Below are positions 1 through 1,329 of a stretch of DNA of 64,000 nucleotides, in pieces. The DNA lies in NCBI GenBank assembly GCA_951406725.2, contig OX597823.1, positions 11,532,001 to 11,596,000 of the forward strand. The letters are read 5' to 3'. Below the pieces are notes generated by a model. The model did not search any database, was not told the origin of the DNA, and worked only from the letters and a program-made list of their open reading frames with translations. This DNA is from Octopus vulgaris. Its lineage: Eukaryota. The position numbers and the translations under genes are program-made. Position 1 is the first letter of the stretch. Each line of letters opens with the position of its first letter.

Positions 1-1180
1 TAGGCTCCCTTGTTAGCTCATCAAGGATTATTTATTAGAATATCAGTGCAGAGCTCTGGATACTTTTGAATCAAAACCACATTTGGATACTTTCAAAGAA
101 ATCGGATCTCCCTCTTCAGTGTTGAAGCTTAACTACTTCACTTAATAGTCCCTTTACTCCACACCTTAGTGTGTTGTTTATACAGCTTAATAATACAGCT
201 AAGTATTACTAGATTAAACTATTGTTAAAGATATGTTCTCAGCTCAGCTCCAATCATTTGGCAAATCATATCTTAAGCTCAAATCATATTAGGATAAAAA
301 GCTTGGTCTTCTGTATCTACATTCAGTCCCTTAACCCAGCACTTAAGGCAAGTTTCTTCTACCATAGATTCCTGGTTGACTAATACCCAGTGAGTGAAGT
401 TAGACATATATTGTGCAGGTGTCCATCAGGCAGACTGTACCTGTTTTTAGGAAGTAGGCTCACTCTCCGTCTGGTTTTAACACCAGCTGATCTTTGGATA
501 CCTTTAGTCCACTATATTAGAGTCAAACCAGGATTCTGCACTGAGGATGACTCAAAATTTTGATGAGCTACTGTCTATTGCATCCTATGAATAGTGGTTC
601 TTCTTTAACCCCTCTTTAGCAGTCTCAGAAACTTTGCCAAAACTTAAGAACTTTCCTTCTTTCTCTGACTAAACCATAAAAAAAAATTAAGAAAAAAATG
701 TGTTACATTTTTTTCTTATTAACTGACAAGTACTTAGAATTAATTATGAAATCATCTACTGATTAATTACTTCTCTTAAATATAGCAATTAAGCAAATTT
801 TTGCAGAACAATAATCCAATAGCTTATTACAATGATTGAGTTTAATACAAATGTTATTCTGGAAGTGAATGGAAATTGAGATGCTGTTTTCTTCCTGAAA
901 TTGTATCGAAGAATGTGTGTGTGTCTGTGAAAGTTAAAGTAATGGTGGAATAGAATAAAAATACTAAACAAAACACTTAAAATGTAGAAATGTTGTGTGG
1001 AATACTGGATTTTAGGTTTTATCACAATATTTCTCTATACAATTAAATTGATTGCCATATGTGAATGTATATCATAGACTAAAAAAGAAAAAAAAAACAA
1101 AAAAAAAAACAAAAGTGGTTTGTCTTTTTTTTTTTTAATGAAGTTTATTCCTAATTAGAATTTTCTTCTTCTACCTACAG

Positions 1181-1210
1181 AAATAAATCATTGGAAATTT
1201 ATGTATGAAG
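1181..1210 (+). CDS. Candidate 30-nt microexon in the Ig1-Ig2 intron, (E)INHWKFMYE
   Basis: Branch-like CCTAAT at 1150-55; ttttcttcttctacctacAG acceptor; donor AAG|GTAAAA. Only the phase-1 frame is free of stops, and phase 1 is what the downstream LAR exon needs. Confidence 0.5.
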
Positions 1211-1329
1211 GTAAAATTTATTATAGTAAAAGTAGATGCAACTAATTAACAAATCATTTAATAAATTATTTAAATATGATGCATTTTAAAGATAATTCCT
1301 AATTTGGGGATAGTTGTTCTTTCTACTAG

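Follow-up and report, generated by a model that had tools for sequence, protein, structure and literature searches.

In this study, a 30-nt cassette microexon was identified in the Lar gene of Octopus vulgaris, where it adds ten residues (EINHWKFMYE) to the linker between the Ig1 and Ig2 domains. It is located at 1181-1210 on the forward strand of the analysed 64-kb stretch of DNA (hereafter the window), is of phase 1/1, and was recognised through RefSeq isoforms, tblastn and homology. By analogy with vertebrate LAR mini-exons, it most likely represents an ancient molluscan splice switch that adds a binding surface to the receptor. It is of interest as a new LAR splice site that is, unexpectedly, conserved mollusc-wide, and not as any cephalopod novelty. 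As the discovery of an exon it carries lesser weight, because RefSeq already models it.

The splice signals described in the initial annotation are present in the sequence. A branch-point-like CCTAAT (1150-1155, forward strand), whose A lies 26 nt 5' of the acceptor and might serve as branch point, precedes a pyrimidine tract (1161-1177) and a CAG acceptor ending at 1180 (together 1161-1180); the 30 nt end in AAG and are followed by a GTAAAA donor (1211-1216). Acceptor and donor were both recovered by splice-site scoring on the forward strand. The nearest AG 5' of the acceptor ends at 1158, leaving an AG-free zone of about 20 nt. With these CAG/GTAAAA borders and a frame-preserving length of 30 nt, the microexon falls within the limit of 51 nt used for cassette microexons. 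It is also, as annotated, open in phase 1 alone: the phase 0 and phase 2 readings are stopped by TAA and TGA, and phase 1 gives (E)INHWKFMYE, the final G forming a Gly codon with the GA of the exon that starts at 30794. Taken alone, a single open frame is weak evidence, as we estimate roughly even odds of this at the local base composition. When short-exon candidates on both strands of the window were ranked with a simple splice-site scorer of our own, 14 passed on the forward and 4 on the reverse strand. The microexon reached the second-highest summed score on the forward strand and was the best candidate with any open frame; the sole higher-scoring one there (32279-32311) is interrupted by stop codons in every frame. 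Since splice signals and one open frame are insufficient, the proteins of relatives were taken as the decisive external check.

Judged by its sequence, the gene is a LAR-type (type IIa) receptor tyrosine phosphatase. The translation of the exon at 30794-30970 is 100% identical to the RefSeq receptor-type tyrosine-protein phosphatase F/Lar of O. sinensis, which carries Ig, FN3 and PTP Pfam matches, and an identical stretch is found in an O. vulgaris protein (P0016). Its closest relatives of known structure are PTPdelta, PTPsigma, LAR and Dlar, the best PDB matches having E values from 1e-77 to 1e-72. A tblastn search of the window with isoform X1 returned four exons, all on the forward strand: the microexon, with its peptide placed at 1180-1212; its partner across a 29.6-kb intron, encoding the first half of Ig2 (30794-30970); the second half of Ig2 (37616-37726); and Ig3 (46080-46349), the boundaries of the last two being taken from the sequence. 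The same search found no Ig1 exon in the 64-kb window, so Ig1 lies upstream, as had been assumed, and the microexon is located in the Octopus Lar intron separating Ig1 from Ig2. Identity to RefSeq, tblastn and the phase 1/1 of the microexon agree with the earlier assignment to LAR and with the proposed joining to the exon at 30794.

The initial annotation had further proposed that INHWKFMYE be sought in cephalopod Lar isoforms and that its use is optional, and both points are seen in the annotated proteins. RefSeq proteins hold the exact peptide between Ig1 and Ig2; XP_036361663.1 includes the microexon and XP_029640727.1 skips it, and inclusion and skipping both occur among the O. sinensis and O. 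bimaculoides RefSeq Lar models (including XP_052827291.1 and XP_052827290.1). Among the matches listed, six of seven linker-spanning proteins of O. sinensis and four of five of O. bimaculoides carry the insert, with one skip each. The peptide differs by one residue between the two species (EINHWKFMYE and EINEWKFMYE, respectively). The main cephalopod Lar cluster was represented by 15 of its 27 members plus one further protein. Among the matches listed, the insert is found in 10 of the 21 linker-spanning proteins of cephalopods, all ten from Octopus. The 11 skip proteins comprise one each from O. sinensis, O. bimaculoides, O. vulgaris and Argonauta, two from Acanthosepion and five Logan proteins; outside Octopus, the insert was seen in 0/1 Argonauta, 0/2 Acanthosepion and 0/5 Logan proteins. 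No insert is present at the meA or meB positions in the Octopus isoforms compared. The microexon is almost certainly a real alternative exon, and it is already part of the automatic RefSeq annotation.

Octopus Lar varies elsewhere as well. Other optional segments in P0001-P0020, outside the window, include 14 residues after the signal peptide, five residues between Ig3 and FN1 (not found 3' of 46350 in the window) and a stretch between FN1 and FN2 that varies. Isoforms X6 and X11 (P0008 and P0009) have a different N-terminus with an extra FN3-like start and lack all three Ig domains, and a cuttlefish protein (P0006) contains a similar stretch. A 124-residue Octopus Lar fragment (P0031) carries another 10-residue tail after Ig1, which starts with Glu and is unmatched in the window. 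For O. sinensis isoform X9 (P0014), the annotated start is a Met immediately within the exon that begins at 30794 (window position 30796); this implies either a different 5' end of the transcript or an upstream exon that is out of frame.

At the transcript level, the Ig2 exon was present in 19 of 24 sequencing-run rows, in all of them as contigs. Contigs of four of these runs, which are coded and carry no tissue labels, were placed on 29960-32300, and in each of the four a single contig covered 30792-30971 and ended at these limits, as expected of spliced RNA. No contig of the four runs covered the short candidates at 30156-30175 and 30365-30394. The junction 5' of the exon at 30794 was not visible among the contig ends listed, which were dominated by a dispersed repeat near 31650-31900. 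Thousands of contigs in all four runs match this repeat, at 31650-31900 and at 32250-32300; our guess is that it is SINE-like, and related tandem units occur at 38832-39150, 43176-43552 and 44554-44751. Logan proteins with the Octopus insert were not found, the three matches among 22 candidates all being without it. Inclusion and skipping are seen in gene models (RefSeq and GenBank submitter) of 12 species. That the support is annotation, and that the junction was not visible in the contigs of four runs, might suggest a gene-prediction artefact or splicing noise. However, the same motif, position and phase recur in the separately annotated genomes of these 12 species, and we regard an artefact as extremely unlikely.

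The initial annotation had also placed the microexon in alternation with, or in addition to, a Ser-rich pair of 20 and 10 nt. This part was not borne out. The 20-nt candidate (20778-20797) has a non-consensus donor (GTTAGC), and its peptide is found in 0/378 proteins compared; four ten-base candidates downstream passed the filter, and none of the four is Ser-rich. The pair is unsupported rather than excluded, the contig comparison having covered 29960-32300.

Beyond the cephalopods, the linker was compared by the spacing of its flanking Cys residues in 112 of 115 new homologues (one with less than 40% identity and two without a match were dropped); a separate homologue comparison was confined to the 29 matches with at least 42% identity over 170 columns. 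The spacing is 48-54 residues in 88 of the 112 and 58-71 residues in the other 24, which by name are all gastropods or bivalves. An optional insert of 9-12 residues is present at the same linker in LARs of limpet, abalone, snail, scallop, mussel and clam. Comparison of isoforms gave GGNPWVVKYE in three Haliotis species and Patella, GGNPWVVTYK in Pomacea and Littorina, GFSQWVDKQ in Biomphalaria, GINPAWKKIYK in Pecten, GNPNWKKMYK in Mytilus and EGHNPDWKLVYK in Ruditapes and Mercenaria. Include and skip forms were paired within 12 species (two Octopus, three Haliotis, Pomacea, Littorina, Patella caerulea, Biomphalaria, Pecten, Ruditapes and Mercenaria), and the two Mytilus pairs are both cross-species. 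Every insert ends in W-x-x-x-Y-[KE] except that of Biomphalaria, which is without the Tyr. In 14/14 pairs exactly one register is compatible with phase 1/1, under the rule that the insert and the next residue both start with a G codon, as phase 1/1 between G-ending exons demands; from these proteins we infer phase 1/1 for the inserts outside Octopus as well. When all 81,330 stop-free 8-mers from the window's six frames were scored with a profile of the six distinct non-cephalopod inserts, the Octopus exon ranked first; its score was reached by 23 of 100,000 shuffled versions of the Octopus insert. The linker insert was not seen in chiton isoforms (0/8), Lingula proteins (0/5) or Lineus proteins with Ig1 (0/6), nor in Capitella, any arthropod row tabulated or the four vertebrate structures aligned, which show a 10-residue gap there.

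Homology of the Octopus insert with those of gastropods and bivalves is therefore highly probable. A single origin in the common ancestor of cephalopods, gastropods and bivalves would be the simplest reading of these sequences. The three lineages split in the Cambrian. The absence in chitons, Argonauta and decapods may reflect loss or incomplete annotation. The cephalopod splice code proposed in the initial annotation did not hold: matching optional inserts in gastropods and bivalves show that this is not a cephalopod-specific innovation, and among the cephalopod proteins listed it was seen only in Octopus. One might argue that an old and real exon functions away from synapses, in epithelia, muscle or development for instance, or that it does no more than stabilise the protein mildly. 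Bivalve nervous systems are simple, and the insert is also retained in bivalves; it has drifted in Biomphalaria, none was seen in decapods, and the microexon has no eMIC-type UGC motif upstream. However, both isoforms and the motif have been retained in three classes, which implies selection, and we consider such a role very unlikely.

Further inserts were found in LAR ectodomains. Among four Mytilus proteins (P0208, P0210, P0219 and P0221), a further alternative insert of 5 residues occurs in the Ig1-Ig2 linker, with all four combinations across species; among three Mercenaria proteins (P0233, P0372 and P0377), a different 10-residue linker insert and a single extra residue occur, and Mya (P0235) has an unrelated long Ig1-Ig2 linker. 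These sequences make the linker appear to be a hot spot of splicing in bivalves. Optional or extra inserts also occur at the vertebrate meB position, of 8 residues in Haliotis rufescens (P0195) and 20 in Lineus (P0201, P0306, P0307 and P0310), and at the meA position, of 23-33 residues in Lineus and 3-7 in several insects (P0244, P0247 and P0265). These are unlike the vertebrate sequences, and possibly the same sites have been used repeatedly and independently outside vertebrates.

To see how the insert might be accommodated, AlphaFold2 models of Ig1-3 were compared with and without it, the insert being present in one of 14 alignment rows. Mean pLDDT is near 95 in both. In the model with the insert (residues 98-107), strands are predicted at 96-100 and 103-106 after the last strand of Ig1, with block pLDDT values of 93 and 88 over residues 91-110; neither strand has a counterpart in the skip model. 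Superposed on Ig1-2 of human LAR (2yd5), the models give TM 0.93 and rmsd 1.2 A with the insert and 0.92 and 1.3 A without; on Dlar (2yd1), both give TM 0.88 and rmsd 2.2 A. The insert is thus predicted to form a beta-hairpin that extends the last strand of Ig1, with the Ig1-Ig2 V kept, a V that AlphaFold2 may recall from solved structures. Alternatively, the insert might act as a hinge that loosens or opens the V and alters the geometry of existing sites, with no new site formed. The linker belongs to a V-shaped module held by inter-domain contacts (PMC6078854, PMC4239663) and its length is otherwise conserved, the insert varies from 9 to 12 residues, additional inserts of unrelated sequence occur there in Mytilus and Mercenaria, and meB is reported to be partly a spacer (PMC6078854). 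However, the V is kept in both predicted models, and a pure spacer is not expected to keep the Trp and Tyr positions aligned among the three classes, which makes a hinge unlikely.

It seems to us somewhat probable that the insert acts as an additional contact surface while the V stays intact. Splicing would add or remove a small hairpin with aromatic residues where Ig1 meets Ig2, and the conserved Trp and Tyr on this optional protrusion would provide a binding or blocking surface. By analogy with meA and IL1RAPL1, the hairpin might create or block a contact with an extracellular partner, and splicing would then switch the choice of ligand. The predicted edge hairpin might instead support contacts between LAR molecules, with its edge strand driving a cis dimer or homophilic trans binding and thereby tuning phosphatase activity; dimerisation is described as a negative regulator of LAR activity (PMC13486334). 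A homodimer prediction of Ig1-2 with the insert, run with the alignment unused, scored 0.00 and gave no answer. Positive evidence for such contacts was not obtained in this analysis, and heterophilic ligands are the targets of those LAR-RPTP mini-exons that are known; we consider this quite unlikely. Within the reading of an added contact surface, it is tempting, if only tentatively, to picture a LAR splice code of the shelled molluscs' own, at a site unused by vertebrates and insects: the microexon would predate the split of cephalopods, gastropods and bivalves, and its folded Trp/Tyr hairpin would dock a synaptic partner peculiar to molluscs, with a switch that depends on the type of neuron. 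Ten residues long and with two conserved aromatics, the insert offers a handle for fishing new LAR ligands, and a test case in snails with identified neurons, e.g., Lymnaea.

A literature search that included four of the insert peptides returned no publication on an insert in the Ig1-Ig2 linker of mollusc LAR, subscription papers lying mostly outside its coverage; the mollusc-wide conservation of the insert and its W/Y motif were not found in print. The microexon may be listed in the O. bimaculoides exon tables of a recent preprint (bioRxiv 10.64898/2026.09.05.749416). For outgroup species including octopus, the same preprint reports that, of the exons specific to neural tissue, a median of only 3% are conserved in a further species of its sample, which includes one mollusc.

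Compared with known systems, the microexon resembles eMIC/SRRM4 neural microexons in being shorter than 51 nt and frame-preserving, with a CUAAY branch motif and a pyrimidine tract. eMIC-type microexons are described with a UGC close to the 3' splice site and an extended AG exclusion zone (PMC8797185). In contrast, the 100 nt upstream of the Octopus microexon are without UGC (no TGC in 1081-1180) and its AG-free zone is short, so its motifs give no indication of neural regulation. The closer parallel is the LAR-RPTP mini-exons, a textbook synaptic splice code described in vertebrates: meA-meD of PTPRF, PTPRS and PTPRD are likewise short, in-frame, optional ectodomain exons of the same receptor family. 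Vertebrate meA and meB belong to the Ig region and alter the affinity for ligands (PMC6078854, PMC4239663, PMC10883964), and meA directly contacts IL1RAPL1 (PMC6078854). However, meA is located in an Ig2 loop and meB in the Ig2-Ig3 linker (PMC4239663, PMC6078854), whereas the Octopus microexon lies in the Ig1-Ig2 linker, and its peptide is unlike those given for vertebrate meA and meB (PMC6078854). Eight uncharacterised Ptprd exons are mentioned in PMC10883964, one of which could lie in the Ig1-Ig2 linker. A sequence-conserved optional exon at a new site in three mollusc classes suggests that LAR has been placed under splice control more than once.
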